A DNA stretch of 40,360 nucleotides from Nemertoderma westbladi. Lineage: Eukaryota > Animalia > Xenacoelomorpha. Below, piece after piece: positions 5,841 through 40,360 of this stretch. The first letter of the stretch is position 1, and every line of letters starts with the position of its first letter. The translations under genes were made by a program, and so were the position numbers. Where the stretch lies: positions 1 through 40,360 of the forward strand of contig JAUCBJ010006860.1 in assembly GCA_032718475.1 (NCBI GenBank), given 5' to 3'. The notes under the pieces were generated by a model. It searched no databases. It saw only the letters and a program-made list of their open reading frames with translations, and was not told the DNA's origin.

Positions 5841-6265
5841 ACTATATGTATTATTTAAGATACGGTATGAGAGCAATATCGCACGAAGCAATGTCAGTGA
5901 GAAGAGGCAAGTCGTTTCCAAGGTCTACCCAGAGCTTGGTTTAGCCGAGACACGAGGATCTGAATTTTGCATTCCTAATACTCTACTTACCAATAATACT
6001 TGAATATAGTAGGAGCTTTATTGTACTTTAATAAGTACGGATATTTCATCTTACTGTAGTTACGTATTTGTAATGTAATACGGACAGTAAGGAAAGAGAA
6101 AAGAATTATTTCTCGCCGTCGCACTAAATATATAATATATAAGTAATTAAATAATAAACACTAATATATATTGCACTAATCTACTAAATAATCGCTAAAA
6201 TAACATTCTACTAAATAAAATTAAAGAAAACGATTATAATAAAATTACATAATAATACATACATA

Positions 6266-7021: not shown

Positions 7022-7110
7022 TCAGGGGTCGTGATGTCATTTCATAATCTTTTTGTTATTTAAATTTTAGCATTAGCGTGTATATATTCTAAACTCAATA
7101 TTATACTAAA

Positions 7111-13300: not shown

Positions 13301-16300
13301 TGTCAATCACCTCTTTAGAGAAGGCTTCTCGGTTGTCATCCGCAGTGGTGCGTACCACTGAACAGGCGTTTGAAGGGCTTGAGATTATCCCAAAAGCCTG
13401 GATGGTCATCCAGTACTCCACCGGTTTCTGGTTGAGATCTCCTTCAGGCCACCACAGAAATCGTAGGCTATCTCGATCCCTATCTAGCGCCTTGACTTGT
13501 AAGAACATGCCTTCTATATCTGAGGCGAAAGCGATTGAATATTGTCGTAATCTTAAAAGTATTCCCAACAAGGATTGGAGTAAGTTGGGTCCGGGTAACA
13601 ATTCAGAATTAAGGGATTGGCCCATATAGAGGGCGGAGCCGTCAAACACCACTCGTACCTCATGGGGTTTACCGGGTTTGGGAACGTAATGGTGAGTTAA
13701 ATAATACGTTCTCTCGGTTATAGGTGTTTCTTCCGGCACTCGCTCCGCATATCCCTTGCTAATAAATTTCCTCAACTGCGTTTGATACATTTCTTTAGCT
13801 GAAGAATTTGCCGTAAGGCGTCGATGTAGTTGAGCAATTCTTTTCTCCGCCAAGGGTCTGTTGTTTATGAACTTTGGTTCTCGCTTTCGGAAAGGTAGAC
13901 CGATTTCATATCTACCTTGATCTTTAAGAAAACGTGTAGTTGTCTCTTGGATCTGCTTGGCTCTTTCTTCTTCTACCGATAGGGCCTTATCGTAGGAATT
14001 GGGCTCTACAGCCTCTTGAGTAAAGAATCGTACGGCGTGTTCATCCCGAGTCTTGGCATTACAACGTTCAATGACGTCATTCAGTTCGTCGTTATAGTCG
14101 TCTCGTTCTGATGGACGGAGTAGCTGACATAAGTTCACTTGGTTTTGCCAAGTCTCGTTTTCCTTAAGGAGATCAATGGTATTCTCCTCATCGAAGAGTT
14201 GGTGGACATTGTCATTATCTGAGGAGTATGGTGTTCCCTCAGTTGGATCGTCTAACTCACTGCTCTCAACTTCCCATTCTCTTACCTGATATACCTGATC
14301 TTTCGGTAATCTTACCATGAGAGTTCTACGGGAAGGGCCAGTAAAGTACCAACCCACTCTAGTTCTTCCCGCATAAGCTTGTAGTGGTTGCGGTTGAGCA
14401 GGCCGTTTCTCCAATGTCTCGAGCGCTTCATGTGCGTTTTGACCGATGAGTATTTGCACTCCAGGGTAATCGGTGTTGAATCTAGGTATTTCGAGCTGCT
14501 GGGTGAAATCGTCCTCATCCCAGTTATAAGGTTCCACTTGGCTGGTAGCGAAGTTTTTTATCGCAACCATTTTTACTGACCTTATACTATGTTCTCCTAG
14601 TTCATCCTGGGGGGTGGACAACGCACCTACATAATAATCTGCTATTACTGTAGATTTCCAAACCTGCATAATTCCTGACATGTTTAGCTTAGTTCGGAAC
14701 TTGGGTTGTCCAGCAAAGATGTCTTCGGCTAGTTCTTTGTCGATGAATGTTCCTGTAGCCTACTACCGGAGTCAAGAAGGGCGTTCACTATATAACTCCT
14801 TTTAGGTCCGTGGACCCTTAACTGTACTACAGGAAATTCTCGGATTCCTACATTGGAAGTTGGCGCTTTCCAAGATGGTTGTCGATCAGAAGTAGTTAGG
14901 GTGAGGTCGCTGTCTGTGTCTTTTTCATACGTAAGTGCTCGATACACTGCGGTATTTATCATGTAACAGGATTCATCTTCGTCGGGGAATTCATCCGTAT
15001 AGAATCCTTCCATCTCAGAACTTTGGTCAGTGTCGTTCACATCACTGAATTGGACATGTAGTTCGGAATCACTTACCTGACTCGGGCTGTTTCGTTCGAA
15101 TTCAGTGTGCAACAAGATATGATGTTTCGCACCGCACTTTGCACACCTTGTGTCGGAGTAACAGGTTCGCCGTTGGTGTCCTTGTCTGAGGCAATTATAA
15201 CACAACCGCTCATCCCACATGACTTCCCGTCTCTCCGTTAATGATTTCTTCAGGAATTCATCACACATATTCAAACGGTGGGTCCCGTCACATAGCGCAC
15301 ATTTCGGTTTGATGTTACTTACCTTATTTTGAATAACATTGTGCACACTCGTTCTTTCTTCGGGCTTTCTCACCTGAATTCTCTTGGGAGACGTATGAGG
15401 AGTTTTTCTTACCTGTTCTCTCCTGTCATTGGTTCGAGACTTGAATTTACTTACCTGTTCTTTAGGCGTTTTATTTACATAATAAGATCTTTCAGTGTCT
15501 TTCCCGCTATCCTCTCCTTGAGAAGTCTGGCTTTCGCCGTCGTCTGTATAACACACTGGTGTTACCTTTCTCCTAGAAACGGGTTGCTCACTTACCTTGT
15601 TTTCCGGTGTCTTCTCTCTGGACTGCTTTAGGAGTTGTAATTTCACTTCTCCATCTAAGAATGACATGAGATCAGCCATGGTAGGGTCTCGTCGTTGCTG
15701 TTCCATCATATATAACACTTTCTTATCCCAGCGTGTACCTACTCCACCCTTCGGTAAAGTAGAGGCCACAGCTCCAATAACCATAGAACTCTGATATTCA
15801 TGAGACTTACCTAGCCAATCTAATTGTCTACAGATCTCCTGAATCTCATCGGAAAACTCTATAATCCCGCTGCTAATGAACTTTCGGGGCGCTACTAATT
15901 TTGCATACAAATATTTAGCTATGTTATTCCTATTACCATACCTGATGTTTAGTGTATCCCAAACTTGTCTTAATCCATCTGGATGTCCAATAAACTTTAA
16001 CGCCATTAACTTGGGAGATCCTTCCAAGCACTCGATGAGGAATCTAAGTTTCTCTCCGTTAGATAGCACAGAGTTCTGTATGTTATCTTTGTAATATTCA
16101 TTAAAAGGTAACCATTTCATCTCATCTCCATTGAACTTGACGATCTCTCCCACCTTTACCGCTTGACGGGCTTCGGTTCTAGCCATTTGACGCGTAAAAC
16201 TTTCTTGGGCCATCGTGTTATTTAATATCGAGTTATCGGTATATAAATTTCTCGGATTATGATCAAGTCTATAGGGAATATCATTGTCAACAGGTTTATA

Positions 16301-18565
16301 ATTACCCTTAATAGGGTTCACTATAGGAGTTTCTACTTCGCTAGCAGTATAGATGCGTGTGGGCTCCACACCTTGCGCATGAGATACTTCAGACCTAACA
16401 GGTTGACACATTGTTACCGGGGGTGGTGGTATACCCTTTTGTGTATTTACTAATTTATCGCGTTCTAATGTGATACTTTGCTGCACTTCTTGCAACTCTA
16501 ACCTACTTTCCCTTACTGTGCCCTTGAACTGCTTGACAGTCTCCTGCATCTGCCCGAGCAGGAGATCCATCCCCCGCCGTCTCTCATCCACCCCCTCGAC
16601 CGCCGAAGCGGGAGCCGCCAACGTTGTAGCGGGCGGACGAGGGACAACGGGCGACAAATCATTAATATTTCGCTCGGAGTCCAGAACATGAACTGTCTCC
16701 TGGGCTGTTCTGCTGGGCACAGGTAGCTTAGTGCTATGCAAAGGGAATCTAGAGGTAGGTTCTGGGAGTACAGGTGTCTCTATCACCGAAGGGGTGGATT
16801 CGAGAACAGGCCTAATTATTTCAGGCTCATCTACTATAGTAGGGAGTCTATCTATTTTAATAATTTGGTCTGGGGGTTCTGTACTACCTAAGTCTGTGCT
16901 AACTAGTTGCTTTCGAACAGCTGGGGGCAAATCAGGCAATTTCTGACGGTGGGACATTCTTCTACGTCTGCTGAGACGAGATCGATTTCCTCCGCCTTTA
17001 GGGTCTGTTGTATCACCTTCATCTGATGATGTAAAACCCTGTCTCTTGGGAGTAGATCGACTCATCATCTGCATTTGACTAGCTGTTAACTGTTTATTTA
17101 TGCAGTCCCGACTCTCCTGAATATCCTCCAACTCCAGTTGGGTGGTCTCTTCAGCTGCTCTTCGTTCTGCTTCTGCCACTGCTCGCTTTCTTTCTGCTTC
17201 TACTGCTGCCGCTGCCGCTTTTCTTTCCACTTCTGCCGCTTTTCTTTCTGCTTCTACTGCTGCCGCTGCCGCCTTTCTTTCCACTTCTGCCGCTTTCCTT
17301 TCCACTTCTGCCGCTTTTCTTTCTGCTTCTACTGCTGCCGCCGCCACTTTTCTTTCTGCCTCTGCCTCTGCTGCTGCCGCTGCTGCTATCTTTCTGTCTT
17401 CTATACGTTTTTTCTTTACTTGTTCTTCTTGGACTCTAGTGATGCGGAGGCGTTCATCAAATTCAGCTTGGTTCGCAGCTCTCATATCCACATCGATTGC
17501 GTCCAACACAAGCTTGGCTCCTTCACTGTTAGGGCTAAGTCCATCTAACCTTCTCCTCAACTCTTCATCTCCTACAAAACGTTGATAGTCCGACAGATAG
17601 ATATCAATAGCATCCCTCTTATGCGGCTTCTCTACCGTCGCTTCACTTTCCACTTGGGAAAATCTAGCGTCTGTGGATTCTTCATGGGTTGAGCGCTCAG
17701 ATAACTGAGATTTCCAAGGGGCAGTTATTTGAACTTGGAGACTCAACCGCTGTAACCAAGTCTTTACGGCAACTTGCAACGAAGTGTCTTGTCTTCTTTT
17801 CGAAGCCTCCTCAAAGGCCGATAGGATTAGTCTGATTCTTAGAATTCTTTCTCGAACTTGATAAAGCAGATCTCCCTGCTCTTGAGGTCCTTGTGGTTGT
17901 CCAAACAATTGTTCTTCTAATCGCCCCATGGAGCTGAAGAATCACTGTACGTATCCGGCTGCGGACCTCTTCCACACAGCTGGATCGATGGTTTCCTTGG
18001 TTACTCCCATCCTGTGTATGTCTTCCCAGGCAGCTTCCGATAAATCAAACGGGAGTCCGGGTCCGGGGAAGTTCCATTGCGACTCGACAATAGACTTCAG
18101 TTCTTCCCTTGACTACTCCGCATAACTACCCTTAGTCGATCGCTTACTTTTCGCCCAATCAATCTGGTGTTCCTCCACCGCAATCAATAACCTAGTGAGT
18201 ACGGCTGCAGGAAGGATGAGAAGGGGGTCCGAATAAACCGCATCTGTCATCTTTGCTCCGTGCTCGGGTGTCAGCTCTACAGTATCCGCACTACTGGAGC
18301 TGTCGGGCCGCTGAGAAATAAGTTCTCGGCTCGCGGGTGGTTGCTGTTCCGCTGCTTCTTGGTCCCGCTTGACCTGAGCTCTAGTGCCTATGACAGACCT
18401 ACGGTGTTGGACCAGCCTAGGTTCTGATATTACTACTGGGGGAATGATCTTTCTTACAGTAGGAGGTGAGTTGAACTTCAGTCTCACACGTTCCACACTC
18501 CTGTCTGGGTCACAGATGGTCGTATCTAGGAGACTGTCTGACAGGTTTTGCTTGGTGTCAGACAT
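10400..18565 (-). pseudogene. BEL/Pao gag-pol polyprotein (about 2700 codons), broken by stops and frameshifts
   Basis: Gag KFNGD...LSNGEKLRFL; three Cys/His knuckles (CALC..H..C, CYNC..GH..C, CAKC..HH); protease LLDSGS; RT YMDD; RNase H LHVFGDAS; integrase HHCC, GVDLFGP, SDKGTNF, PWWGGSWERL. In-frame stops at 18113, 17942 and 12150; frameshifts near 14760 and 11400. The first two stops are sense codons in copy B. Confidence 0.95.
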
Positions 18566-18699: not shown

Positions 18700-19182
18700 T
18701 TAGAATACCGGTATGCTTATAGTATATATATAAGTATTATTACAGACTAGGTTTGTCACAGAATACCGGTATGTAATTTCAGCCCAAATATATAGCAATA
18801 TATAATAAGCCTATCGTGAATACCGGTATACAGCTTACACTTATAGTATATATAAGTATAATTATGGATTAGAATTAATTACAGAATACCGGTATAATTT
18901 CAGCCTAAATTTATAAATATATAATAGGCCTATCGTGAATACCGGTATACAGTTTACACTTATAGTATATATAAGTATAATTATGGATTAGAATTAGAAT
19001 TAATTACAGAATACCAGTATAATTTCAGCCAAAATTTATAAATATATAATAGGCCTATCGTGAATACCGGTATACAGTTTACACTTATAGTATATATATA
19101 AGTATAATTACAGAATACCGGTATGATTTCAGCCTAAATTTATAGAAATAAATATAATAAGCCTATGGTAAATACCGGTATG
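18700..19182. repeat. AT-rich tandem repeat (about 60-bp subunits, about 120-bp dimer) with ATACCGGTAT palindromes in the retrotransposon leader
   Basis: (G)AATACCGGTAT recurs about nine times. A shorter array occupies the equivalent place in copy B (about 38135-38320). Confidence 0.85.
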
Positions 19183-20148
19183 TCAATTATTTTGGAATAA
19201 TTGAATTTCTGAATTTTAGGGGTTACTTGGTTACTTTAACTTACTTTATTACCGTTATTTAAGCAGTAGTCCAACTGATATTAAGACCTAATTGTTGTAT
19301 GGCAGGCCTACTATTTTATAAATCGGTTTGAGTTGATTTATAATACATATACCCGTTAAAATGGGTTTTGTCAATATTTGAAATAAATGTTATTATTTCT
19401 GGGGTAGTCACTACACAGAAGCTGTGCGCTCTCAGTGAAGTGCTACTTGTTGGACACTAATACTAATAATTCTAATTTACCTAAGTTACTTAATACTACA
19501 AATTACGTACAATTCGGGTGAGATTACAATCTCTAAATAAACACAAAAATTACAAGTACGAATTTTTAGGGTAATTTTACAAGAAGTCTACAAACCAGCC
19601 TAACAAAGGGTTAGATTATCTGGTTATTACAACGGACAGGGTACTACGGTATTTGAAAATAATAGGTATTTGAAAATAATAAGTAGTAGTAAATATACTG
19701 CATTGTCCAGATAGGAAAAATGCCACCGTCTGACGACTTATAGCCGTATCGCTATAAGTACTACGTTATGTATCACGGAGTGTTCCTACCTAGAAGTTAA
19801 TTACCGCGGTCTACCAGAACCAACGTGCCTATTAACCACTTTACAACACAAATATACTGCCCACACACTAATCACCTTCGGGAAGCACTGTACACTAAAC
19901 CCTAAATTAGGTACAAGTACTTATACAACAAATAATCAGTAGTTAAAAATACTTGAACAGCCAAAAGAACCACGGTATCTGCTGGAGTGACCGGGGTACA
20001 AAATCACCAGTCTTTACCTACGCCAAGCAGCCCTGATGTAGTACCGGGGTTAATTTAACTATAACGGTATATATAACAAGCACAATTACTGTAGGAATAA
20101 ACTTGGGGATATGAATGTTGCGAATAATCGCATAAACTCTGAATAATA

Positions 20149-20719
20149 AATATTACGCTACGCGTACAGACTACTCAAACAAAATGCAGACCAAATACTG
20201 ACAGACTACTATCGAGCCTAAACAAACTACGGTATATGCAGACTCCGAAATGGTTAGTTAGTATGCGTTCTAACCGAGTAGTACGACTTATTCTTTCGAG
20301 GGGGTTTACCTCACAGCTCTGGAAGCCCCTACGTTCCCAACTGGCACTTTATCGGACATACACTCTACACACACCGAAATCTCTTCAGACCTAACAACAG
20401 CCAGACAAAATCCAGCCTACAAATTATCTAAATAAGAAATATTACGCTACCCGTACAAACTACACAAACAAAGTACAGACCAAACGCTGGCAGACTACTA
20501 TCAAGCCTAAACAAACTACAGTATATGCAGACTCCGAAATGGTTAGTTAGTATGCGTTCTAACCGAGTAGTACGACTTATTCTTTCGAGGGGGTTTACCT
20601 CACAGCACTGGAAGCCCCTACTTTCCTAACTAGTAATTTATCGGACATACACTCTACACACACTACAGTCCCTTCAGACTTAACAACAGTCAGACAACAG
20701 TCCAGCCTACAAATTATCT
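20149..20719. repeat. Two tandem 289-bp direct repeats in the leader of copy A
   Basis: TATTACGCTA at 20151 and 20440; both units end CAGCCTACAAATTATCT. Confidence 0.9.
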
Positions 20720-20988
20720 GTACAATCTGGGCAGGCTTACACGTCTTCTGCTCAATATTAACCTACAAGTAAATAAAACTGACAGAAATAAGTAAAATCT
20801 CAATAAAAAACCAGGGCTGCAGTCCCTGATTAATTATTAAGGCCTACCGGTATATAATTATCAAAATTGAATAATACTGCTGTACCTGTACTGCTGTAGG
20901 TACCGGTCCGGGTGGTTAGGTAGTCAGGCCTACTAGGTACCGGTTGACCGGTACTTCAGCTTTATTGCCTACTGCAATACAGAAGCTT

Positions 20989-20998
20989 TATCTGTTAT
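20989..20998 (-). promoter_or_regulatory. Non-tRNA primer-binding site candidate of copy A (sense ATAACAGATA)
   Basis: Abuts the 5' LTR end, has no TGG, and is the exact reverse complement of 21746-21755. Confidence 0.7.
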
Positions 20999-22200
20999 TG
21001 TTTGCGCTTTCAGACCTTTAGCAGTTTAACCTGCCAAATTGGGATGTCTTCTAGATAATAGATCGTCTTTAGCCTATGACAAGTATTTGATACACTACAT
21101 TAGCCGAAGCCAGTCTATGCGCGATCATTCACCCGCTGGATATACCCGGGAGACTGGATTCGGAAGCCTAACCGTATTGCGGTGTAGGCCTACTGTATTA
21201 TTCGACTGATCGTAATATATAATCTCTGACAAATATTACTCACTCTCGGGAAATATTAACAGTTCCTTTAGGATGTGGCGCTCTAAATATGTAAACAGAG
21301 TTATGACTTAAACTAGACACAACGGGATGGCTATAGATTCACGTATATGGCGCATTCTTTAGGAGATGCTTTGTTATCAGTCACAATCATACACAATACT
21401 GCACAATGCTGCACACCGATCTGCCGACCTTCACTAATTTTAGTCACATACAAAGAGAACAACAACCAATACATGTAGGGCCTATGAAATAGCATTAGAT
21501 TCACTTCAAAACCACTTTAATGTAAGTCGCAATCGTTATATGTAACCGGTCTCTCTAACCTTCAGTATATCAAGAAGATTGGGGTGTCTGATTATTGATT
21601 GATATTCTCCAATATAATAATATTCCATCAACAGATATAATGAATAACCGACAGTAAATAGCAGTAAAAATGCAGTGTTTGTAGTTGACAATATGATTAG
21701 GTGAGTGAGTTGTGAGATGCGTTTGGTTTGATATGATTAGCTAAGATAACAGATATACGTTCTATAATTAAGCCTACTAATGTTGGGCTAAAGACTGAAA
21801 ACACAGAGATTCCAAAAGCCGGTCTTCTAGGCTCAGGACAAAATGTAAACATTGACCCATAATGCATTGCGCGATTTCCCGGAGGTTTCTGTACAAAAAG
21901 CAGGAGAATCGCTCTGATTGGTTGACCGAACAAAGAAACACCAGAGAACAAGGAAAAAGCTACACGTGTACAGCTCAGCTGTTAGCTGTCGTCATAGTAA
22001 CTACACTGTTTCAAGAGGATCTAGCGCATTGCGTCATAGAATTGCTAATTATGTCCGCTAAAGTACACATACAGAATAAATGGCTTTGTATGTCCACTAA
22101 AACACCAGTACAGTAAGGATACGGCCTTTTATGCCTGTTAAACCAACTACAGAGTACTTTACGGGGAAAATAACCGGCTAATTCCGCAAAAGCTTTTACA
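20999..22200 (-). repeat. 5' LTR of copy A (1202 bp)
   Basis: Direct repeat of 752-1953, followed by TSD TGTAT. Confidence 0.96.
21746..21755 (-). other. Candidate self-primer motif in the LTR of copy A (sense TATCTGTTAT)
   Basis: Complementary to 20989-20998 and positionally equivalent to 35490-35501 in copy B. Confidence 0.65.
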
Positions 22201-23034
22201 TGTATGTAGGTCCCTGTTCCATTGGTAGCAGACCATGGGTTTGTGGCGTTTGTTATGCCAACATTCACACCGCAATACGCAGACCATTCGTCGGACTGTA
22301 TCTTGGTTCCACCGGCGACATGTTTCTCCAAAATAGGATGGAGGGTGTCTGCATCACGATGCAAAACGTGGTAGAGGCGGATGTCGACTTTATTATCTGG
22401 CGTTTCCATACCAGTCCAAACACCCACGGCCCATCCACTGTCGTCCCATAATTAGATCGGGTGACGGAAAGTGGTCCCCACCAAGCAAACGACCTCGGTT
22501 GTTGGTGCTCCTCTTGCGTTTTCCCCGCAATAGCGTCTCGTCGATTTGGACGATATGTCCTGGTCCACCCATTGGCTCTGACTCCTCTTGATCGCGGTAC
22601 ATTAATTCTCTAATAAAATTGTACTAGTCGACAAGGGATCCATTGCCTTGCACCCCAACAATGTCGCCTAGCAACAGATGTGCAGTACGCATTCGAACTT
22701 CGAGAGCAAACGAATACGAGATGGCCAGAATCTGCCGAACCTCGAATCGACTCTTCTCAAACCACGTTCCAGAACGTGCAGTTTGCTTATCTGCTTGTGC
22801 TTATTAGCCTTGGAGCAACGCCAAACAAGCCGCATGAATCCCCTGTCTGCCTGTCCTTCAGCGTAATTTTAGCTTGCGCAGTACAACCCGGAAAAGAACA
22901 AAGACGTAGGGTTGGTTGCCCATTTTGTTGTAGAGTTCGGGGAGAAGCTCCACGCTTTGAGCAAACTCAATAGCGCGCTCCTCAGTCTCGATAAGTTTCC
23001 CAATCTCAATGAAATTTAATTCAGCCATAGTCAT
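22201..23034 (-). pseudogene. Merlin/IS1595-type transposase, N-terminal and central part, frameshifted
   Basis: Motifs GGPGHIVQIDET, RK..NRGR, WVFG and RDADTLHPILEKHVAGGTKIQSDEWSAY. A possible left terminus GGGTATTAG lies on the minus strand at about 23187. Confidence 0.9.
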
Positions 23035-23298
23035 GAGTACAGTATACAAACAGTAGGCCAGTAAGTAACAGTACAGCAGTAGGCCTAACAATACAGTACT
23101 GCTATACCGGTACCGGTAACAATTTTTATAAGTTTCTATCCGATTTCATGATTGTTTGGCTAGTGTCGTTCAAACGTACTAATACCCATGGAGCTACGGG
23201 TAGGACAGTACAGCAGTAGGAATAATCCCAAAGTCGGTGATTTTTGCGTAGGGCTGTGGCTGTAGGGCCTAAATCAGTAAATATTAGCTAGCTGCCTA

Positions 23299-24714
23299 GG
23301 CCACAAGTCCCTAAAAGGTGCCACCCTGCTCCATAGCGCGGGAAATTCAAATGATTGAAAGACATGTTATTTGTACTGGAAAGGGTGGCAGATCAGATCT
23401 GCCACTGCCACCTATATATTGGCGGTAAATTCAAATTTGTTTTAACATTGAATACATGAATAGAGTAAGACCAATCTGCCAATGTAATTCATTGAATTCA
23501 TTCATTGAATTCAATTATTTATTATCGGTTTAACTCACTCATCCGTTAACGTTGTTGATTTATCTATTCTGGGACTTCGAGCAGCACGTGAACAACTAAA
23601 CCAGCACGCTAACTACCGGTAGTCTGGGGCTTCGAGCACCATGTGAAACAACTAAACTGGCTGGTTACCTAGTCTGGGACTTTGAGCAGCACGTGAACAA
23701 CTAAACCAGCACGTTAACTTGTCTGGGGCTTCGAGCAGCACGTGAACAACTAAACTGGCTGGTTACCTAGTCTGGGACTCCGAGCAGCACGTGAACAACT
23801 AAACCTGCACGTTAACTAGTCTGGGACTTCGAGCAGCACGTGAAAAACTAAGCTGACTGGTTAACTAGTCTGGGATTTCGAGCAGCACGTATACAATTAT
23901 AAATGCTGCCTGGTTAACAAGTCTGGGACATGTCTGGGACAGATATAGCAGTATAGGCAGAAGCATTATACACATATTGTAATTACAGTAGGTCGGCCTA
24001 CCTGCGATATATTTTACTAAAACAATAAAATAGGACATGGGGTCTTATTCCCTCAGATACTCTTAGCATTTAGGGCCACTTTTGGCCACTGTTAGTACTC
24101 AGGCACTAAGGCCCATCAAAAAACAAAATACCAAATCGATTTTAGTGCTACATAACCCAACCCAACTACCACAAGAAAAATTGCACCAAACCATACAGTA
24201 ACTACAGGTTCCGGTAAGTATTGCACGAAAATATATTTTACTATATCAGTTCCCTGCTATATTGTTATAATTATTATGTTCTGATGTAATTATAACTGAT
24301 ACAAGCAAATAATAAATGTTCTTTACATTTTACTGATAGAAGTTAAGCCAAATCCCCCGACCCCCCCCCCCCCCCCCCCCCCCCCTCCTCAATTTGCAAT
24401 TTTGCTCGAAGTCCCAGACTAGTTAACCAGTCAGCTTAGTTGTTCACGTGCTGCTCGAAGTCCCAGAATAGATAAAACAACAACAATAACGGATGAGTGA
24501 GTTAACCGATAAGAAATAATTTATTCTGATTCAATGAATTACATTTAGTCTTACTCTATTCATGTATTCAATGTTAAAACAGATTTGAATTTACCGCCAA
24601 AATATAGGTAGCAGATCTGATCTGCCACCCTTTCCAGTACAAATTACATGACTTTCAATCATTTGAATTTACCGCGCTATGGAGCAGGGTGGCACCTTTT
24701 AGGGACTTGTTGCC
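23299..24714. mobile_element. Non-autonomous DNA transposon with about 300-bp terminal inverted repeats
   Basis: 23299-23610 is the reverse complement of about 24405-24714. Termini GGC...GCC are flanked by TA on both sides. No ORF. Confidence 0.85.
23568..23940. repeat. About 49-bp minisatellite, about 7.5 units, with alternating A/B variants
   Basis: TCTGGGACTTCGAGCAGCACGTGAACAACTAAA core followed alternately by CCAGCACGTTAAC or CTGGCTGGTTACC. Confidence 0.9.
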
Positions 24715-25528
24715 TAGGCCAGATGCAAGATAGGCTACGAGTCAGTGCAAGTGCAAGTACCAAGGCCTACCAGTAAACAGTGAAATTTAAATTTAGCGTA
24801 TTTTAATGTTATCCATTAATCTGTCAGTCAAGAAAAGACATTAATTTGTCAGATCGAATATTAATGTATGTTTCGGTTCGGGGACGTAAACTTAAGTAAG
24901 AGCGTTGTGAAGGGGCTGTGATGTCGGAGGGGGTGGTGTAGCGTCTAGACTCATCTAATATACTGTAATGTAATCAATGCTATGCAAATGTGAGTATATT
25001 GCAGTAAAATGTGAATATAATCATACCCAAGCCATTTACGGCTGCAGCCCGACAGCCAATAGAAACAGGTCAGCTTTACTTTACTATAATGTTTCTCCTT
25101 ATGTTTGACCCACTATACTCACACTACTACTGGTTGACTCATGCTAAATAAATGTTCTGGAATGGATATTTACGACGCTGGCTCATGTTGATTAATGGCC
25201 CTCCTATTTTTAGGTCCGCGTAACGAGACCTCTAGTATTCACTCCGTTGTTTCTTTTTCCTTTACGCCTCAAATCGAGGTAAAATATATATTTCAAACAA
25301 AAACAGCACAAATAGTAAGTGATTAATGAGGAGCACGGAACAGTTACTAGAACGTAAGTCGTATCCTGTCCTTGGACTACTAAAGGGCGGTTAGTTCGGT
25401 ACCGATTGGAGCAGACCGGCAGATACAGGTGTGGGATGGTTCGTGAAACGGCCGGGAGGTGGCGCATATATGGTGGTGGAAACCGTGGTTGTTGCTCTGG
25501 CAACTACCGGTACGTGACGGTTTCTTTG

Positions 25529-26961: not shown

Positions 26962-28016
26962 CTAAAAGTCGATAACTTCGCCCTGATTGTCGTAATCGTT
27001 GTAGGCGATCCAATCGCGAGCGATGGGAGCCGAGAGCATCCAATCGGGAGTCCCGAAGGCGTCGGCGATAGCGAGGGACTGCGGCGCCATGTGGCGGCAC
27101 AGCCCCCGGACGGCCGGACCCACAGCGGACGCGGCCTCCGTCGTCAGGATACCCGAGCACATATAGTAAGCGAGGTCGCGTTCGATCGCGGCGAGCGCGT
27201 AGAGTTTATAGAGACGAGTTAATACGGGTTGGATGGCCGGATCCGCGCCGGAGACGCGATCGATGAAGGCGGCGCTGACCAGTCGCTCGGCGTAGCTGCG
27301 CGCCGCGTGTTGGACCTCGTCGCTGAGTCGGCACATCCAGGCGTCGTAGACCCCGGCGGCCCCCCCGACGGCCGACAGCGCGCCGCCTAACTCCATAAAC
27401 ACGGCGTCCTCCCGGCGTCGCAGGAGGTAATGAAGGAACTCAACCGAGTCGAAATCAGCGGCGGGGGCCGAACCGAAGTCCTCGGGTTCGAACACAGCCA
27501 ACCGCTCTTTAGCTACTTTTTGCATGAGAACGCTGTTGTCGCCTTCAGCCGTCATTGAGGCGTGCGTCAACCCTACGAATATACCGAAACGATTGGCCGA
27601 CAGGTAGCCCTGGCCGCCGCACCGCTCCCGACACACCGTAGCAACCTCCTCCCCGTGCCACGACACCAGCGGTTTAATCGCACAGCACATTGTGACTAGC
27701 TCGTTGTGCTCGTCCGTGCCGGCCGTCGCGTACCGGTCCTTCACGTAGTCGACCCCCACGTTCATGGCGACGGTGGCGGCTAGCAGCGGGAGCAGCGCGC
27801 GTTGCTGCAGCTCGTACCGGAGTATCGGGGTGTCCGACCGTCCGGTCGGTCCGACAGCCAGACGGGTCGCCGCGTATCGGAACGCGATGGCGAGCGCCGC
27901 CTTGGTGCAGCCCACCGACATACTCGCGATGCAGATACGGCCGGAGAGGAGCTGGTCGGCCACGGTGAGGAAGCGGCCCCGGTTGCTGGGGATGGAGGTG
28001 GTGAAACGGCCGTCGG
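26962..28016 (-). CDS. Acyl-CoA oxidase-family protein, exon 2
   Basis: Motifs [19 protein letters not shown] and [12 protein letters not shown]. Acceptor (C)n-ACAG at 28017; the phase-1 junction with exon 1 reads SDVE-A-DGRF. Confidence 0.92.
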
Positions 28017-29020
28017 CTGTGGGGGGGGGGGGGGGGGGGGGGGGTAATATTTATTATTTCCCATCAAATCTATTACTTTTAAGTTAAAAAAATTGAATTA
28101 AAAAAAACTTACACCTTTCTACCCTTATTGCCTTATTTAGCCTTGCTGCACACAGGTCTGGTTGGTTGATAGTGTCTGGTACCGACCGGTACTAAGAAGG
28201 GGGATTTCTGAGTCGCTGATATTATTTCCGACGTTAATTTGAATTTTTGGCGGAATTTAGTCTGTCTGTCTGTCTGTCTGTTTGTCGGTCTTGCTTTTAA
28301 CGAAGAGACGGTCAGTAAGGTATCTCTATCGAGAACTACAAGATGCCGCTGATACGTAAGAGGTTTTATTTTTAAGATATCAAATTCTGAAAAAGATCAT
28401 TAGATTCTAATTATAAATAAAAAATCTCGATAAAGTAATGTCCGCATTTGCGAACAATGAAGTTATTATCCAATCCAGGAATGCAGCTAAATAACTATTT
28501 CTTTTACATAAATAATGTAACACATTTCCGTCCGACTTTTTAATCCGAAGTTTCAATGAATAATAAGAGTAACCGAGGAAATACGGAAGTAGGACAACAA
28601 CAAATTATTTTATTCTTAAATTGTTACTTTTTCGCTCAAAATTAGACCGAAATCGGGAGAAAAAGTTGCACTTTTTTCTATAGGGAGAAAAAGTAACCCA
28701 TAGGATTGCATTGCCTCGAGAATAATGAAAAAAAGTTATACTTTATTTCCCATGTAATAAATATTTATATTTTAGTGAAATATGTTGTTTTCTTTAAGAT
28801 ATTAACTTTTGAATTAGAAGTTTAACGTAACAAATTTATCGCAAATTTAAGGTAAATTCTGCACTAATTTCTAATTAAATAATACTAGCTACTACTGTAC
28901 TGGTACTGGTACTAGGCCTATATTAGCTATACTTCGTGGGTGAAGGTGATATTCGAGAACGGTAATCAAATAATTAAACCAACAATTTAATTAAACTAGT
29001 TAAATTTATATATAAAGTAA

Positions 29021-29274
29021 ATTTTCTTCGGCCGTTAGGCCAGGGATTACCCACAAAGTCTGACGACTTATTTCCAGTGCGGTCCCCCCAGAACTTTACT
29101 CCCCAGAGGAAACTCCAGTACTCATTTAGCTACCGCTTAAGGAGAGATGGGCCCTGGCTGGTCCCTTTAAATCATTCGTGCCGAAACAAAAACTGCCCTG
29201 GCCCATGTGAGGATTGAACCCACGACCTACAGGAGATGTGAATTCAATGCAACCACTACACCAAGGTGGAACCT
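29021..29274 (-). mobile_element. tRNA-derived SINE in the acyl-CoA oxidase intron
   Basis: A box TGGTGTAGTGG (29263-29253) and B box GGTTCAATCC (29220-29211); second copy at 4591-4766. Confidence 0.8.
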
Positions 29275-29495
29275 GGGTTATGATTAACAACGTAATTACT
29301 GTTCTAGAATAAATAATGCGAAATCAACAGAATAAAATTCTAGATCGTTGATTGGATAAATACTTTATGGGCATTAAAGTCTTTATTTTCCGCACTTTTG
29401 CGGATAATAAAGGAGGATATTTAAGGGAAAAAAATTAAGTTAACTTTTACTTTTCGTACTAATTAAATTAATTAATAAACTCTCAACAATCTTAC

Positions 29496-30378
29496 CTTCC
29501 ACATCCGAGTATCTATTCAGTAGATTCTCCCTCGGCACCCGAACATTATCGAAGGATAACTTGGCGTTATCCACCCCATTGAGGGCCATCTTGTAGCCCA
29601 TATCCTGTACGAGGACTCCCTCAACGGGACCCAGACCGTCGTCCCGAATCCTCGCCAATATCCCGTGTATCCCATGGTTGGTTCCGCCCACCAACAGCTG
29701 CGCGAACACAACGCAATGCTTAGCGTGAACCGCCCCATTAGTGATCCAATACTTCTGGGCCACGGTGGTCGGAGTATTAATAATAAACTCGTCTGTCGTC
29801 CCATCGTACGTCGCAGTCGTCTCCATCTCGACGGCGTTGTTACCATAACCTAATTCCGTCAAACCGAAACATCCCACATCAGACAGACTGTCTATACCCG
29901 CTAGAAGGCGTTGGTGGTGTCGTTCGGTCCCCAGTTTCAACACGGTTCCGCCGAATAAGTTAAACTGGACTGTCATTTTGGTCGCCATTGATGCGTCAAT
30001 CACGGCAGCCATCTCGTGAGCGGCGAATATTCGCCACGGATTCTCTTTGAAGTCCAAAACGGAGATGAAGTCGTTATCACAAATGGACTTGAGCCGCTTC
30101 AGTGCGACCTCACGTTCTTCCACCAACGTAATGTTGTATTTGGGTACGAAGAGGGGATCTTTGGCGAACTGACGGAATCGATTCCGCATCTCGTGGTTGT
30201 CGTGGTCCAGGAATTCTGTGAGTTTTTCTGAGTTGAAGTCGGCCGCGGGCCATAGAGATCGGAGTTCACCCGGAGATTTGTATTGCGGTAGACGGCTAGT
30301 TGCGTGGAACTTCCGTTGACTTCGTTTCGAGATGACATTGCGGAGTTGCCGGTTAATTAAAACTACAGGTAAACCCAT
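29496..30378 (-). CDS. Acyl-CoA oxidase-family protein, exon 1 (start codon inferred)
   Basis: Motifs VQFNLFGGTV, GCFGLTELGYG, ETTATYD, KYWI and GYKMALNGVDN. Donor G|GTAAG at 29495. ATG at 30378 gives a 645-aa spliced product. Confidence 0.9.
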
Positions 30379-30544
30379 TATCCAATCGGATACAGTAATA
30401 CCAGAATACAGGTCAGTACTGAGCGGCAGGCAGGTACAGGTAGCTGGGTAGGCCTGCACTACAACAGTGCTACTACCGGTACTATATCCTGATATCTGTA
30501 GGCCTATATGCAGCAATACTGCAAACAAATACAATACAGCTACA

Positions 30545-30600
30545 GGGTAAATCTTTTCGACCTACGCGTAGGCCTACGCGTAGGTCGAAAAGATTTACCC
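30545..30600. mobile_element. 56-bp perfect palindrome flanked by an 8-bp direct repeat (miniature transposon)
   Basis: GGGTAAATCTTTTCGACCTACGCGTAGG followed by its exact reverse complement; CAGCTACA at 30537-30544 and 30601-30608. Confidence 0.85.
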
Positions 30601-33021: not shown

Positions 33022-33184
33022 AATATTGGGGTTCGCTTCCCTTTCCTGTGTCAAATTGATACTGTATTTGGTCAGGAAAATAATTAAATATGTGTAAGAG
33101 AGAAAGAACTTAACCAATTTCATCTTTAAAATAGTAGCATTTTATTACAGTATGTTATATTTTAAATAGATACTGTATATTACA

Positions 33185-33531
33185 GGGCTCCAGTAAGGAC
33201 ATAGAAGCTAGGAAAGCAAAGGCTTGGGTAGCTCTATCAAAAATGGATACCATTTGGAAATCAGATCTCTCCAGGCACCTGAAGACTAAGTTCTTTCGAG
33301 CCACAGTGGAAAGTGTATTTTTATACGGGGGTGAGACCTGGACACTGACTAAATTACTTGAACAACGAATTGATGTTGTTACACAAGACTACTAAGAGCA
33401 GCCCTAAACATCAGCTGGAGACAACACATGACAAATGCCGAGCTTTATGGTACAATACCACCTGTATGAACCACCCTCCGTGAACGCAGATTAAGATTCA
33501 GTGGGCACTGCTGGCGAAGTAAAGACGAGGT
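33185..33531 (+). pseudogene. RTE-type LINE fragment (C-terminal to RT)
   Basis: DIEARKAKAW...IWKS...FFRATVESVFLYGGETWTLT...RLLRAALNISW...RRLRFSGHCWR, with a frameshift and a stop. Cut at 33532 by an LTR. Confidence 0.85.
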
Positions 33532-33889
33532 TGTAATGATTGTTTATACAATCAACAATCTGAATTAACTGTGAACCATAATATTGTTTATTAGAGGGAA
33601 TTCCCATTTCACAGCTATCCGCAATGCGAACTAATAACTCTTCATATTAATACTGAATACCAGCTGAAGTACTTTATCCAGTGGTTATTGGGTATAGCAT
33701 TATATCATAGGGATATTGTGTATGGGGAAATTAATTCGCTCTGTGGCGATTACAATTGAATAATTATGACTAAAGTTAATTTATCAAATCTTTGAAAGAT
33801 TTTAGTTACTTTATTTCATTTAACATTTAAATATTATAATTATCGTATTATAATTCAATTATTTTATTTCGTTATAATGGAATATAACA
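33532..33889 (+). mobile_element. 5' LTR of a Ty3/gypsy-like retrotransposon
   Basis: Starts TGTAAT where RTE similarity stops and ends ATAACA directly before a TGG PBS. The partner LTR is not in the window. Confidence 0.7.
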
Positions 33890-33900
33890 TGGCGCAGTGA
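33890..33900 (+). promoter_or_regulatory. Canonical tRNA primer-binding site (TGGCGCAGT, tRNA-Ser-like)
   Basis: TGG directly after the LTR CA and 60 bp before the gag ATG. Confidence 0.7.
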
Positions 33901-33949
33901 AATCAAATTACCTACGTGAATTAATCCCATTTCTCACCCTAAAGTTAGC

Positions 33950-35048
33950 ATGTCAATGACAGGGAAACAAGAAGAAGTTGGGGCTGCAAAGCGTCGGAGA
34001 GGAGCTTTAAAAGGTCAACTCACAATGGCTGAGAACAACTTGATAAAAGCTCTCGACGAAGTCAACAGGTTGGATCCAACAGAGAGAACAACTGCAGACA
34101 TTAGCCGACTAAACCAACGACTCAAACGTCTCCATGGTGCGTATGAAGCTTATGAAGCTGCGCATATAAATGTTAGTATATTGACAGAAGTTGACCCATC
34201 TATTGATGACGACTATATTACTTTGGGGGAGAAAGCTGCAGCTATTGACGATTTAGCAGCAATGGTAGACACATCGATTGATTTAAAACCGCGTACCCAT
34301 CCACCAACTGGTCACCATGGCGAATTTCGATCCCACGAATCAGAAATTCGTCCACACTTAGCAGCCGCATCAAAAACCATTAAAACCCCTTCAGTTATTG
34401 AAGCCGGTATTGATGCCAAACAATTTGATGGTTGGCTCCAGGTATGGCGCATTTATGTTCAAGCATCAAATCTTGAGGCTATGCCACCTAGAAACCAGAT
34501 TGGAATGCTTTGGTCATGTTTTTCAGCTTCGTTTGCTTCAGAGGTCCGTCATGTCATGGATATTGACTATGAAAAGATAACTCACGTAAACGAGGCCATT
34601 CAATTAATTGAGAAACATCTGCGTGACAAACGCAACCAAGCATTAGATTGGCAAATATTATTAAAAGTACGCCAATCGTCGTCAATGGCATTCTTTTTAT
34701 CAGATATTGAAGAAAAGCTTAAATGGGTAGAAGTTGACAAGGAACAGCTTCACATAGCCTTATTAATTCTCGGTGTGAAAAACGAGGAAATTCGGAGAGA
34801 AGTAATCAAAGAACGTCCACCAACTGTAGTTAAAGCCAAGAAGTTGATGTTGGCTCTAGAAGAGTCATATGGAGCCATCAAATCACTGGCTACTGGCAAT
34901 GGTGGAGAGAAACCTTCGATTGCTGCAACCACTAAAAAATCAAATTACAAAAAGAACAAGGAATCGGGTTGGAACAAATCTCAAAATACTGACAATTGTA
35001 AGGTGGCGGATAAACAGAAGGATTATCACAATACTTCTGCAAACCCAA
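33950..35048 (+). CDS. Gag-like protein of the gypsy-like element, truncated by BEL copy B
   Basis: 367-aa ORF after LTR and PBS, with FDGWLQVWRIY and LILGVKNEEIRREV gag-like segments. Its stop codon is supplied by the inserted LTR. Confidence 0.7.
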
Positions 35049-36252
35049 TGTAAAAGCTTTTGTGGGATAACTGATTCGTTTGCCTTGTTGGCCAGTTCCC
35101 CCCCGGTCGCTAGAATACTCTAAAGGGGATCTATAGCTAAAATAGTGCAAGCTACCAGCTTATTGGCTGATTTGCTGTACGCAGGTATCTGGGCTCTGTT
35201 TAATCGGCCAACCAGCCTAGGAAGGTTGCGTCATAGCCTTGTTTTTGTATCTCCCAATAGAATTTGAGTTAGCCTTGATTTTGACCTATCACAGAGCTAC
35301 TGAACTGAAATTTTCCTATCTCACTGCTCTTTCTCTGTGTTGAACGGGAGCTTCGTGGAATAAGGGTAGTTGGTATCCTCGTATAGAGTAGTAGTCACGA
35401 GTTTTTCAAAGCCACGAAAGAACGGCTTTGTAGTGTTTTGTGCTTTCTGCTTTTTAGCTCCAACACTAGTAGGTTTAATTATAAGGACATATATCCTTTA
35501 ACTGGCGGCTTGAATATCACACGGCTTTTAATAACTGACGTATAACTGCTGAAACTGCTAAAATTACCTGCTCAATCGATACTGTATACTGCTATTTGTT
35601 GTCGGTTATTCATTATATTTGTTGATGAATTATTATATTGGAATAACGAGAAATAACCCCGAAAACCCAATATTCTTGATATACCGAAGGTAAGAGAGAA
35701 AGGTTACCAATAACGATTGTGACTTATGTTAAAGTGGTTTGAAGTGAATCTAATGTTATTTGATAGACCCTACATGAGTCAGTCTGTGTTCCTTTTATAT
35801 GTGACTAAAATCAGTGAAGATTGGCAGATTAGTGTGCAGTATTGTGCAGCATTGTGTATGAGTGAGTCTGTTAAAGAAGCAATTCCTAAAGAATGCGCCA
35901 TATATGTGAATTATAATTAAGCCATATCGTTGTGAGTAGTTTAAGTCATAACTCTGTTTATATAAATAAAGCGCCACGTCCTAAAGGAACTGTTAATATT
36001 CCCTAAGGTGAATAATATTGTCAGAGATTATATAATACTGTCAGTCGAATAATACATTAGGCTTACATAGCAATAAAATTAAGCCGTCGAACCCAATCTC
36101 CCGGGAATATCCAGCGGGTGAATGATCGCGCACAGATTGGTTTCGACTAGTGTAGTGAATCAAATACTTGTCATAGGCTAAAAAGCGATTTAATATCTAG
36201 AAGACATCTTAATTTGGCGGGTTAAACTGCCAAAGGTCTGAAAGCGCGAACA
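35049..36252 (+). repeat. 5' LTR of copy B (1204 bp)
   Basis: TGTAAAAGCTTTTG...AAAGCGCGAACA, the same termini as the copy A LTRs. Confidence 0.92.
35490..35501 (+). other. Candidate self-primer motif of copy B (TATATCCTTTAA)
   Basis: Exact reverse complement of 36253-36264. Confidence 0.65.
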
Positions 36253-36264
36253 TTAAAGGATATA
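36253..36264 (+). promoter_or_regulatory. Non-tRNA primer-binding site candidate of copy B (TTAAAGGATATA)
   Basis: Abuts the LTR end, has no TGG, and can pair with 35490-35501. Confidence 0.7.
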
Positions 36265-36624
36265 GCTTCTTTATTGCAGTAAGCAATAAAGTTGAAAATA
36301 CCGGTCAACCGGTAAACTTGAACCGGTACTTCTGTAGGTCAGTAGGCCCAACTGCAAGAACCGGTACTGCTGTAGGCCCGTAGGTCCAACTGCCAGAGCC
36401 GGTACTTCTGTAGGTCCGTAGGCCTAACTGTCCTAACCGGTACTTCCCGTATAAGTACATTAGTATTATTCGATTTGATTGTTGTATACCGGTAGGTCTT
36501 AATACTTAATCAGGGAACGGCCGCCCTGGTTTTTTATTGAGATTTTACTTATTTCTGTCAAGTTTTATTTGTTTGTAGGCCAGTATTGAACAGAAGACGT
36601 GTAAGCCTGATCAGATTGTACAGA

Positions 36625-37190
36625 CAATTTGTAGGCTGAGCTGTTGTCTGATTGCTGTTAAGTCTGAACGGATTGCAGTGTGTGTAGATCACCTGTCCGA
36701 TAAAGAACGGTTAGGAAGTAGGGGCAGCGAACGCTGTAAGGTAAACCCCCAATTAAAGAATAAGTCGTACTACTGGGTTAGAACGCATACTACCTAATTA
36801 TTTCGGAGTCTGCATGTCCTGTAGTTTATTTAGGCTTGAGAGTAGTCTGTCATCGTTTAGTCTGTACTTTGTTTGTGTAAGTCTGTACGGGTAGTGTATA
36901 ATTTTATTTAGATAATTTGTAGGCTGGATAGTTGTCTGGCTGTTGATAGGTCTGAACGGATTGCAACGTGTGTAGATCACTTGTCCGATAAAGAACGGTT
37001 AGGAAGTAGGGGCAGCGAATGCTGTAAGGTAAACCCCCAACTAAAGAATAAGTCGTACTACTGGGTTAGAACGCATACTACCTAATTATTTCGGAGTCTG
37101 CATATACCGTAGTTTGTTTAGGCTTGATAGTAGTCTGTCAGTGTTCGGTCTGCATTTTGTTTGAGTAGTTTGTACGCGTAGCGTAATATT
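36625..37190. repeat. Two tandem direct repeats of about 289 bp in the leader of copy B
   Basis: TTTGTAGGCTG at about 36628 and 36917; equivalent to 20149-20719. Confidence 0.88.
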
Positions 37191-38448: not shown

Positions 38449-40360
38449 ATGTCTGATACTAAGCAGAACCTGTCAGACAGTTTATTAGATGTAACTATCT
38501 GCGACTCAGATAGAGACGTAGAACCGTCTGGTCGTAGGTTCAGTTCACCTCCCACTGTGAGGAAGGTCATCCCTCCAGTAGTAGTAAAAGAACCTAGGCT
38601 GGTCCAACATCGTAGGTCTATCATAGGCACTCGAGCTCAGGTCAAGCGGGATCAAGAAGCAGCGGAACAGCAACAACCCGCGAGCCAAGAACTTATTTCT
38701 CAGCGGCCCGACAACTCCAGTAGTGAAGATACGGTAGAACTGACACCCGAACGCGGAGCAAGGATGACGGATGAGGCTTATTCAGATCCCCTTCTCATCC
38801 TTCCTGCAGCCGTACTCACTAGGTTATTGATCGCTGTGGAAGAACACCAGATCGATTGGGCGAGAAGCCAGCGTTCAACTAGAGATAGTTATGCTGGATA
38901 CACAAGAGAAGAACTGAAGTCCATGGTCGAGTCGCAATGGAACTTCCCCGGACCCGGACTCCCGTTTGATTTATCCGAAGCTGCCTGGGAGGACATACAC
39001 CGGATGGGAGTAGCCAAGGAAACCATTGATCCAGCTGTGTGGAAGAGGTCCGCAGCCGGATACGCACAGGGATTCTTCAGCTCTATGGAGCGAGTAGAAA
39101 AGCAACTTTTACAACAACCTCAAGGACCTCAAGAGCAGGGACAGCTGCTTTATCAAGTAAGAGAAAGAATTCTACGAATCAGGTTAATATTATCGGCCTT
39201 TGAGGAGGCTTCTAAACGAAGACAAGACACGTCGTTGCAAGTTGCCGTAAAGACTTGGTTTCAACGGGTGAGTCGCCAAGTTCAAGGAACAGCTCAGTGG
39301 AAAGCTCAGCTGGAGGAGCGCTCAACCCAAGGAGAATCAACAGACGCTACTTTTTCCCAAGTGAAAAGTGGGGCGACGGCAGAGAAGCCGCATAAGAGAG
39401 ATGCCATTGACATCTATCTGTCGGACTATCAACGTTTTTTAGGTGATGACGAATTGAGAAGACGGTTAGATGGACTTAGCCCTAATAGCGAAGGAACCAA
39501 GCTTGTGTTGGATGCCATCGATGTGGAAATGAGGGCTGCGAACCAGGCTAAATTCGATGAACAACTCCGCATCGCTAGAGAACAAGAAGAACAAGTAAGG
39601 AAAAAACGTATAGAAGACAGAAAGGCCGCAGCAAAAGCAGAGGCAGAGGCAAAAGCGGCAGCAGCAGAAGCAGCGGCAGAGGCAAAAGCGGCAGCGGCAG
39701 AGGCAAAAGCGGCAGCAGCAGAAGCAGCGGCAGAGGCAAAAGCGGCAGCGGCAGAGGCAAAAGCGGCAGCGGTGGCGGAAGCAGAATGGAGAGCGGCTGA
39801 AGAGATCGCCCAACTGGAGTTGGAAAATCTTCAAGAGAAGCAAGACGACTTCAGTAAACAGTTAACAGCTAGTAATATGCAGATGATGAATCGATCTACT
39901 CCCAAAAGACAGGGATATACATCATCTGAAGAAGGCGATACCACCGATACTGAAGGCAAAGGAAATAGATTTCGTCTAAGCAGACGTAAAAGAACATTCC
40001 ACCGTCAGAAATTGCCTGATTTGCCTCCAGCTGTTAGAAGGCAACTAAATAACACTAACTTAGGTAGTACAGAGCCCACAGACCAAATAATTAAAATAGA
40101 AAGACTCCCTACTATAGTAGATGAGCCTGAAATAATTAGGCCTGTTCTTGAAATCACCCATTCGGTGATAGACACACCTGTGCTCCCTGAAGCCACCTCT
40201 AAATTCCCTCTACATAGCACTAAGCTACCTGTGCCCAGTAGAACTGCCCAGGAGACAGTTCAGGTCCTGGACCCCGAGCGAAATATTCCAGATTTGTCGC
40301 CCGTTGTCCCTCGTCCGCCCGCTACAACGTTGGCGACTCCCGCTTCGGCGGTCGAATGGG
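38449..40360 (+). CDS. BEL/Pao gag(-pol) of copy B, N-terminal part, open to the window end
   Basis: MSDTKQNLSDSLLD..., homologous to copy A from 18565. No stop seen; absent from the ORF track, consistent with running off the window. Confidence 0.9.
   Translation, partial: MSDTKQNLSDSLLDVTICDSDRDVEPSGRRFSSPPTVRKVIPPVVVKEPRLVQHRRSIIGTRAQVKRDQEAAEQQQPASQELISQRPDNSSSEDTVELTPERGARMTDEAYSDPLLILPAAVLTRLLIAVEEHQIDWARSQRSTRDSYAGYTREELKSMVESQWNFPGPGLPFDLSEAAWEDIHRMGVAKETIDPAVWKRSAAGYAQGFFSSMERVEKQLLQQPQGPQEQGQLLYQVRERILRIRLILSAFEEASKRRQDTSLQVAVKTWFQRVSRQVQGTAQWKAQLEERSTQGESTDATFSQVKSGATAEKPHKRDAIDIYLSDYQRFLGDDELRRRLDGLSPNSEGTKLVLDAIDVEMRAANQAKFDEQLRIAREQEEQVRKKRIEDRKAAAKAEAEAKAAAAEAAAEAKAAAAEAKAAAAEAAAEAKAAAAEAKAAAVAEAEWRAAEEIAQLELENLQEKQDDFSKQLTASNMQMMNRSTPKRQGYTSSEEGDTTDTEGKGNRFRLSRRKRTFHRQKLPDLPPAVRRQLNNTNLGSTEPTDQIIKIERLPTIVDEPEIIRPVLEITHSVIDTPVLPEATSKFPLHSTKLPVPSRTAQETVQVLDPERNIPDLSPVVPRPPATTLATPASAVEW

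Follow-up and report, generated by a model that had tools for sequence, protein, structure and literature searches.

To our knowledge, priming of reverse transcription by an element's own RNA has been established experimentally only in Tf1-like Ty3/gypsy retrotransposons, and it is predicted in a few fungal and plant lineages. As described in passages of PMC7175516 and PMC4600332, 11 nt of Tf1's own 5′ LTR RNA are complementary to a site that abuts the 5′ LTR, and this self-primer is made up of the transcript's first 11 bases. The relevant passage of PMC4600332 reads Tj1 of S. japonicus as self-primed, like Tf1. For plant elements, a section of PMC6317226 takes as a self-primer any complement of the 5′ LTR of at least 10 bp that starts 0–5 bp past the LTR. 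According to the ICTV family profile, BEL/Pao elements are primed by a host tRNA at an 18-nt site complementary to the tRNA 3′ end (PMC8742986), and the part of PMC4580426 on Achilles, a BEL/Pao-like fly element, describes a tRNA-Tyr site. A full-text search of the literature outside subscription found no paper on self-priming in BEL/Pao; within the literature searched, descriptions of self-priming concern only Ty3/gypsy and certain copia lineages of plants. In PMC3118150 (de la Chaux & Wagner 2011), the terms PBS, tRNA and self-prim occur zero times.

The window, i.e. the whole stretch of 40,360 nt that was analysed, contains two subfamilies (A and B) of one BEL/Pao LTR retrotransposon. Element A occupies 752–22200 on the minus strand. 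It is 21.4 kb long because a LINE is nested inside it, in its 3′ part at 6215–10209 (plus strand), with Exo_endo_phos and RVT_1 domains and ORFs of 1038 and 268 amino acids. The 5′ LTR of A (20999–22200, minus strand) is 1202 nt long with TGT...ACA ends, and is identical to the 3′ LTR (752–1953, minus strand) at 1196 of 1205 nt in a pairwise alignment. The 5-bp target-site duplication ATACA is found at 747–751 on the 3′ side and at 22201–22205 on the 5′ side, and the polypurine tract GGGAGCGG (1954–1961) precedes the 3′ LTR, all read on the minus strand. The limits of the LTRs are thus set by the LTR pair, the TG..CA ends, the 5-bp target duplication and the polypurine tract.

The gag-pol region of A (10403–17941, minus strand) consists of four ORF pieces with matches to the Pfam domains Peptidase_A17 of the Pao type (E = 3e-34), DUF5641 (7.4e-21), DUF1759 (5.3e-11) and Integrase_H2C2 (1.3e-07). 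In a large protein collection, all 19 pol homologues with E ≤ 1e-20 were of retroelement type. Peptidase_A17 was present in 16 of them; of the remaining three, one had DUF1759 alone and two were without a precomputed domain. The nearest pol homologue, named from a sea anemone, was 39% identical. By its protein domains, element A is therefore a member of BEL/Pao (Belpaoviridae). It shares with canonical BEL/Pao elements (Belpaoviridae, Semotivirus) the domains, LTRs of up to 1.2 kb with TG..CA ends, the target duplication, which with 5 bp falls within the 4–6 bp of the family, and the polypurine tract (PMC8742986). Membership of the Tf1/sushi group was also considered and is ruled out: that group has a Ty3/gypsy chromovirus pol, whereas A has the Pao-type domains Peptidase_A17, DUF1759 and DUF5641, the first of which recurs among its homologues as given above.

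Element B runs on the plus strand from 35049 and continues beyond the end of the window. Its 5′ LTR (35049–36252), which was delimited by alignment to both LTRs of A, is 1204 nt long and likewise has TGT...ACA ends. The N-terminal parts of gag are 74% identical between A and B (333/450), and hence the two elements are regarded as two subfamilies of one lineage. This part of gag includes a variable repeat rich in Ala, Glu and Lys, of unequal length in A (17158–17394, minus strand) and B (39591–39803, plus strand). The leader between PBS and gag measures 2–3 kb in both subfamilies and carries tandem repeats, at 20138–20697, 36622–37167, 36320–36444 and 18732–19098. Their units comprise one of about 289 nt (90–91% identity), one of 120 nt, and a CCGGTAC-rich one of 38 nt that lies directly past the PBS hairpin.

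In both subfamilies, a short motif inside the LTR recurs as a perfect complement at the position of the primer site. In A, the candidate self-primer motif TATCTGTTAT lies at 21746–21755 (minus strand; LTR position 446–455), and the putative PBS ATAACAGATA at 20989–20998 (minus strand) directly adjoins the 5′ LTR. In B, the candidate motif TATATCCTTTAA lies at 35490–35501 (plus strand; LTR position 442–453), and the first base of the putative PBS TTAAAGGATATA (36253–36264, plus strand) stands right after the terminal CA of the LTR. The complementarity is 10 nt long in A and 12 nt in B, where it joins 35490–35501 with 36253–36264; the outermost positions, 35490 and 36264, are the end coordinates given by the initial annotation. 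Within B, the 10-mer TATCCTTTAA (35492–35501, plus strand) has as its partner TTAAAGGATA at 36253–36262. The motif and PBS strings previously listed for A and B were all recovered as exact matches in the window. In these elements with 1.2-kb LTRs, motif and partner are 747–751 nt apart, and in both A and B the partner occupies the leader from its first base onward (offset 0).

A search of the window for TATCTGTTAT returned three exact matches, against an expectation of 0.16, and three were reached in none of 100 shuffles. Two of them are in the LTRs of A (21746–21755 and 1499–1508, minus strand), while the third (20989–20998, plus strand) is the reverse complement past the 5′ LTR. The 10-mer TATCCTTTAA matched twice (35492–35501, plus strand; 36253–36262, minus strand; expected 0.34), and 4 of 100 shuffles reached two matches. 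The coordinates of the initial annotation implied that the motif was the start of the LTR. It is internal instead, starting 442 (B) or 446 (A) nt inside the LTR, which begins 441–445 nt upstream. The 3′ LTR of A also contains the motif; it ends in ...GAACA and is followed immediately by the target duplication, without the partner. Hence, the partner is no terminal inverted repeat of the LTR but leader sequence, at the position of a PBS.

A TGG at the start of a PBS is the complement of the CCA end of a tRNA. Neither of the two putative PBSs begins with TGG, and the LTR end that precedes them is ...AACA in both A and B, so a canonical site for the 3′ end of a tRNA is excluded. Judged by this absence of TGG, the 18-nt complement of a host tRNA 3′ end that characterizes BEL/Pao is lacking here; unlike canonical BEL/Pao elements, A and B carry instead a site that complements their own LTR. 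The 40,360-nt window contained no tRNA genes.

To estimate how often such a complement arises by chance, each LTR was subjected to mononucleotide shuffling. Shuffling A's LTR produced a complement anchored at the first leader position and at least as long as the observed one (10 nt) in 80 of 20000 cases; for B (12 nt), the figure was 7 of 20000. The motifs of A and B occupy identical alignment columns. Three of ten positions differ between the subfamilies in each site, and every one of these differences has its mirror in the partner about 750 nt away, as the initial annotation had noticed; one-sided changes inside the 10-mer were zero. Identity between A and B was 7/10 for the motif 10-mer, 7/10 for the PBS 10-mer and 565/671 (about 84%) for the conserved block of the LTR. 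Along the 12-pair helix on the A/B alignment, eight pairs are invariant, three are changed on both sides (C-G to U-A, G-C to U-A and A-U to U-A) and one is unpaired in A. When the partner was slid by 1–3 columns, no double changes were left, and 36–48% of the cells were paired, compared with 95% in the unslid alignment.

A shuffle control for covariation reached the observed value in 56 of 500 cases with n = 2 linked sequences, a number of copies with which this control is unable to reach significance. The covariation of motif and PBS, seen in the two linked pairs of the window, is therefore best called suggestive. By our own rough estimate, independent substitution at the divergence of the block would produce an exact mirror with a probability of about 4e-5. 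Two of the three changes are adjacent, so that three independent events are an upper bound. The earlier description as three compensatory substitutions consequently holds for the mirroring, but the number of events was overstated.

In several respects the two elements resemble known self-primed ones. Like Tf1/Tf2 of Schizosaccharomyces pombe and Tj1 in the passages cited above, A and B have no tRNA-type site and carry a perfect complement, of 11 nt in Tf1 and 10–12 nt here, that abuts the 5′ LTR. As in those elements, a stem-loop adjoins the primer site (relevant passages of PMC7175516 and PMC4600332). In contrast to Tf1, the motif lies 442–446 nt into an LTR of 1.2 kb, and its site is about 750 nt away. 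Moreover, the Tf1 primer comprises the first bases of the RNA, whereas in A and B a nearby TATA-like box calls such a position into question. Cleavage and priming have been demonstrated in Tf1 and are deduced from sequence in A and B. The complements of A and B, at least 10 bp long and starting within 0–5 bp of the 5′ LTR, agree with the in-silico definition of a self-primer in that section of PMC6317226. The same section predicts self-priming in silico for the Tcn1 clade (Ty3/gypsy) and the TAR lineage (Ty1/copia), with evidence of the same kind as for A and B. Those lineages belong to plants and fungi and to two other superfamilies, whereas A and B are BEL/Pao elements in an animal. With the half-tRNA priming of the copia, Osser and Bianca lineages, A and B share a site that is not complementary to the 3′ end of a tRNA. 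However, half-tRNA sites match, and are fixed by, an internal part of a host tRNA, whereas the site of A and B appears to covary with a sequence of the element.

RNA folding was used to predict whether motif and PBS pair. In RNAs that begin at the motif and end at the PBS, or 43–44 nt past it, the duplex had a pair probability of 0.43–1.0 in both subfamilies. Adding 30 nt upstream lowered the probability in A to 0.2, and with 80 nt upstream plus 200 nt downstream it was 0 in both A and B. The pairing partners that compete in the longer contexts are unlike between A and B. The predicted fold thus depends on context and supports the duplex weakly, in restricted contexts; the duplex is short and AU-rich, with two G-C pairs. 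A hairpin conserved in both subfamilies was found just 3′ of the PBS in B (36269–36291, plus strand), with the arms CTTTATTGC and GCAATAAAG around the loop AGTAA, and a fold prediction placed its counterpart in A at 20957–20988 (minus strand). Of its nine pairs, eight are invariant between A and B and one is unpaired in A.

The reading that we favour, and consider rather probable, is that a segment of the element's own LTR replaces the host tRNA in a Tf1-type self-priming of minus-strand synthesis. It is suggested by a site at the end of U5 that lacks TGG, pairs with the element's own LTR and changes together with it between the subfamilies. The motif would stand at the 5′ end of the transcript, or close to it, and a fold-back of the RNA across about 750 nt would bring it into pairing with the PBS. 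The RNase H of the element would then cut past the last base of the motif (...TTAT|CT in A, ...TTAA|CT in B), and extension of the new 3′-OH would proceed through U5 and R. In both subfamilies, the end of the duplex coincides with the junction of U5 and leader. A primer generated by splicing within the LTR need not be invoked: the complementarity is uninterrupted and, by eye, neither GT nor AG borders the motif.

If the primer were copied during plus-strand strong-stop synthesis, the PBS would be rewritten from the motif in every cycle. Mirrored changes would then be an automatic by-product needing no independent compensation, and motif and PBS could drift together free of host constraint. The initial annotation had named selection and copying of the primer as two routes to the mirroring, and the Tf1 model predicts both. 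Its conclusion that the partner is encoded by the element, rather than by a fixed host tRNA, is also the best reading here, in view of the start at the junction, the absence of TGG, the perfect complement and the joint change.

Alignment of the two subfamilies showed how the LTR is organized. Except for the first 20 nt, A and B can hardly be aligned over the initial 370 nt (210/370 identical). A conserved core precedes the motif at about 35416–35491 (plus strand; 58/76 identical), and a variable segment follows right past the motif at 35502–35584 (plus strand; 43/83 identical), beyond which the LTR is conserved to its end. The conserved core of B includes the TATA-like box TATAAG (35480–35485, plus strand), a putative promoter element. 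The boxes of B (TATAAG) and A (TATAGA) were assigned by eye and begin 10–12 nt before the 10-mer motif. A scan of the LTRs for TATA, Inr and poly(A) words yielded neither a clear transcription start site nor a conserved poly(A) signal that would define R.

Contigs of public sequencing runs were aligned to 35020–36400; these were three DNA runs from three studies and one run of a second organism. In one run (X1), the summed contig depth was approximately 1.2–2.0 million at 35678–36241, but 86,000 in the bin of the motif and 37,000 in the variable segment of B. The depth of the conserved LTR was thus tens of times that of B's variable segment, and the family therefore appears to be highly repeated, with many subfamilies. 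Contigs depart from B at the last bases of the motif, with two joints at 35500 (X3) and loose ends at 35503 and 35504 (X4, X5). The core conserved in further family members thus stops at the last bases of the motif. Among the 40 of 140 variant rows listed, none fell within 35490–35501 or 36253–36264, with contigs too short to link both sites.

The conserved R-U5 part (35600–36300) was also present in the run labelled as a second organism. This block seems to be common to many subfamilies, and perhaps to related species too. A 16-mer from the conserved end of U5, a pattern too short for this purpose, gave 247 loci in metagenome, genome and viral contigs, none of which was related by blastn; the sole blastn match among them was 22 nt long. 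For BEL/Pao relatives in viral contigs, a query with the pol protein gave four pattern matches and an alignment query 22, with none confirmed in either case.

The position of the motif relative to the transcription start bears on a variant in which the primer would come from the U3 copy near the 3′ end of the same or a co-packaged RNA, with transcription starting just past the motif. The spacing from TATA box to start is usually about 30 nt in metazoans. With TATAAG or TATAGA lying 10–12 nt ahead of the motif, this spacing would place the start a few bases (7–12 nt) past the end of the motif, and the motif would fall outside the 5′ end of the RNA; furthermore, the conserved core stops right past the motif, where the variable segment begins. 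However, a cut at the 3′ copy would take off R together with the poly(A) tail, and strand transfer would then have to use a second RNA. The sharp end of the complementarity at 10–12 nt is also what a short primer that is copied up to its 5′ end should give, the TATA boxes rest on assignment by eye, and the literature searched describes no such mechanism. We therefore think it unlikely that the 3′ copy is the primer. About equally doubtful is the reading of this variant as a head-to-tail form of self-priming that would circularize the genome, with the motif between TATA box and start; primer and PBS would then act as a freely drifting subfamily 'barcode' that is rewritten in every cycle. Head-to-tail self-priming of this kind is not known from any LTR element.

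Alternatively, the pairing might be a long-range structure of the RNA by which the PBS is masked or presented, or which serves cyclization or packaging, while a host RNA such as an internal or half-tRNA is the primer. This would agree with the description of BEL/Pao as tRNA-primed (PMC8742986, and the tRNA-Tyr site of Achilles in the cited part of PMC4580426), with the half-tRNA primers known in copia lineages (relevant section of PMC6317226) and with the context dependence of the predicted fold. Yet neither site starts with TGG, and one fixed host RNA cannot match two sites that differ at 3 of 10 positions; if the subfamilies used different tRNAs, the LTR motif would need to reproduce the respective tRNA segment in each of them. 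Moreover, the duplex stops exactly at the junction of U5 and leader, where the 3′ end of a primer must sit. A purely structural role thus has, in our opinion, only a small chance of being correct. Very improbable, finally, is that the complementarity arose by chance or is a feature of the DNA, namely terminal inverted repeats of the LTR to which integrase binds. The coordinates of the initial annotation made the two sites resemble LTR ends, and in AT-rich sequence short complements are not very rare, as the 80 of 20000 shuffles for A illustrate. Against this, the start of the LTR lies 441–445 nt before the motif, the target duplication adjoins the 3′ LTR of A without the partner, and the complement is present in both subfamilies at homologous columns with mirrored differences. 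Terminal inverted repeats in particular are ruled out by the limits of the LTRs.

The sequences around A and B include several other repeats and one host gene. Immediately upstream of B lies another LTR element (33533–35048, plus strand), whose ORF of 377 amino acids was split by the insertion of B's LTR at 35049. It has a canonical TGG-type site, ACA|TGGCGCAGTG, at 33887–33899. The initial annotation had cited it as a gypsy element showing what a normal PBS looks like; the TGG-type site bears this out, but the label gypsy finds no support in the ORF, which has no meaningful Pfam match. With E limited to 0.001, it matched no Pfam domain, and raising the limit to 1 yielded a chance-level match to Prominin (E = 0.19). 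Further upstream, 33180–33540 resembles by eye the C-terminus of a LINE reverse transcriptase.

A satellite array extends from 30625 to about 33000, with a period of 32 bp, at least 66 register positions and central copies that are 97–98% identical. It is located between the LTR elements and a host acyl-CoA oxidase gene, whose exons (26962–30561, minus strand) encode the domains ACOX_C_alpha1, ACOX and Acyl-CoA_dh_M. Inverted repeats at 23294–24719 (112 nt at 96%, with further arms) flank 49-bp tandem repeats at 23542–23891, and the pair could be a foldback or MITE-like element. Two short direct repeats (61 nt at 84% and 41 nt at 95%) are common to 4634–4766, in the 3′ part of A, and 29145–29274, in an intron of the acyl-CoA oxidase gene or its flank; they could represent a dispersed repeat of small size.

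If the self-priming reading is correct, it would extend self-priming to a third superfamily of LTR elements, and to animals. It would combine the priming logic of Tf1 with a BEL/Pao element whose primer lies deep inside a long LTR. It would also bear on hairpin or self-priming as the ancestral state of LTR elements, an idea raised in a passage of PMC3601003. Annotation pipelines that report 'no PBS' in such elements would be accounted for. Moreover, an element of this kind would be independent of host tRNA, and its primer and primer site could therefore diverge between subfamilies.
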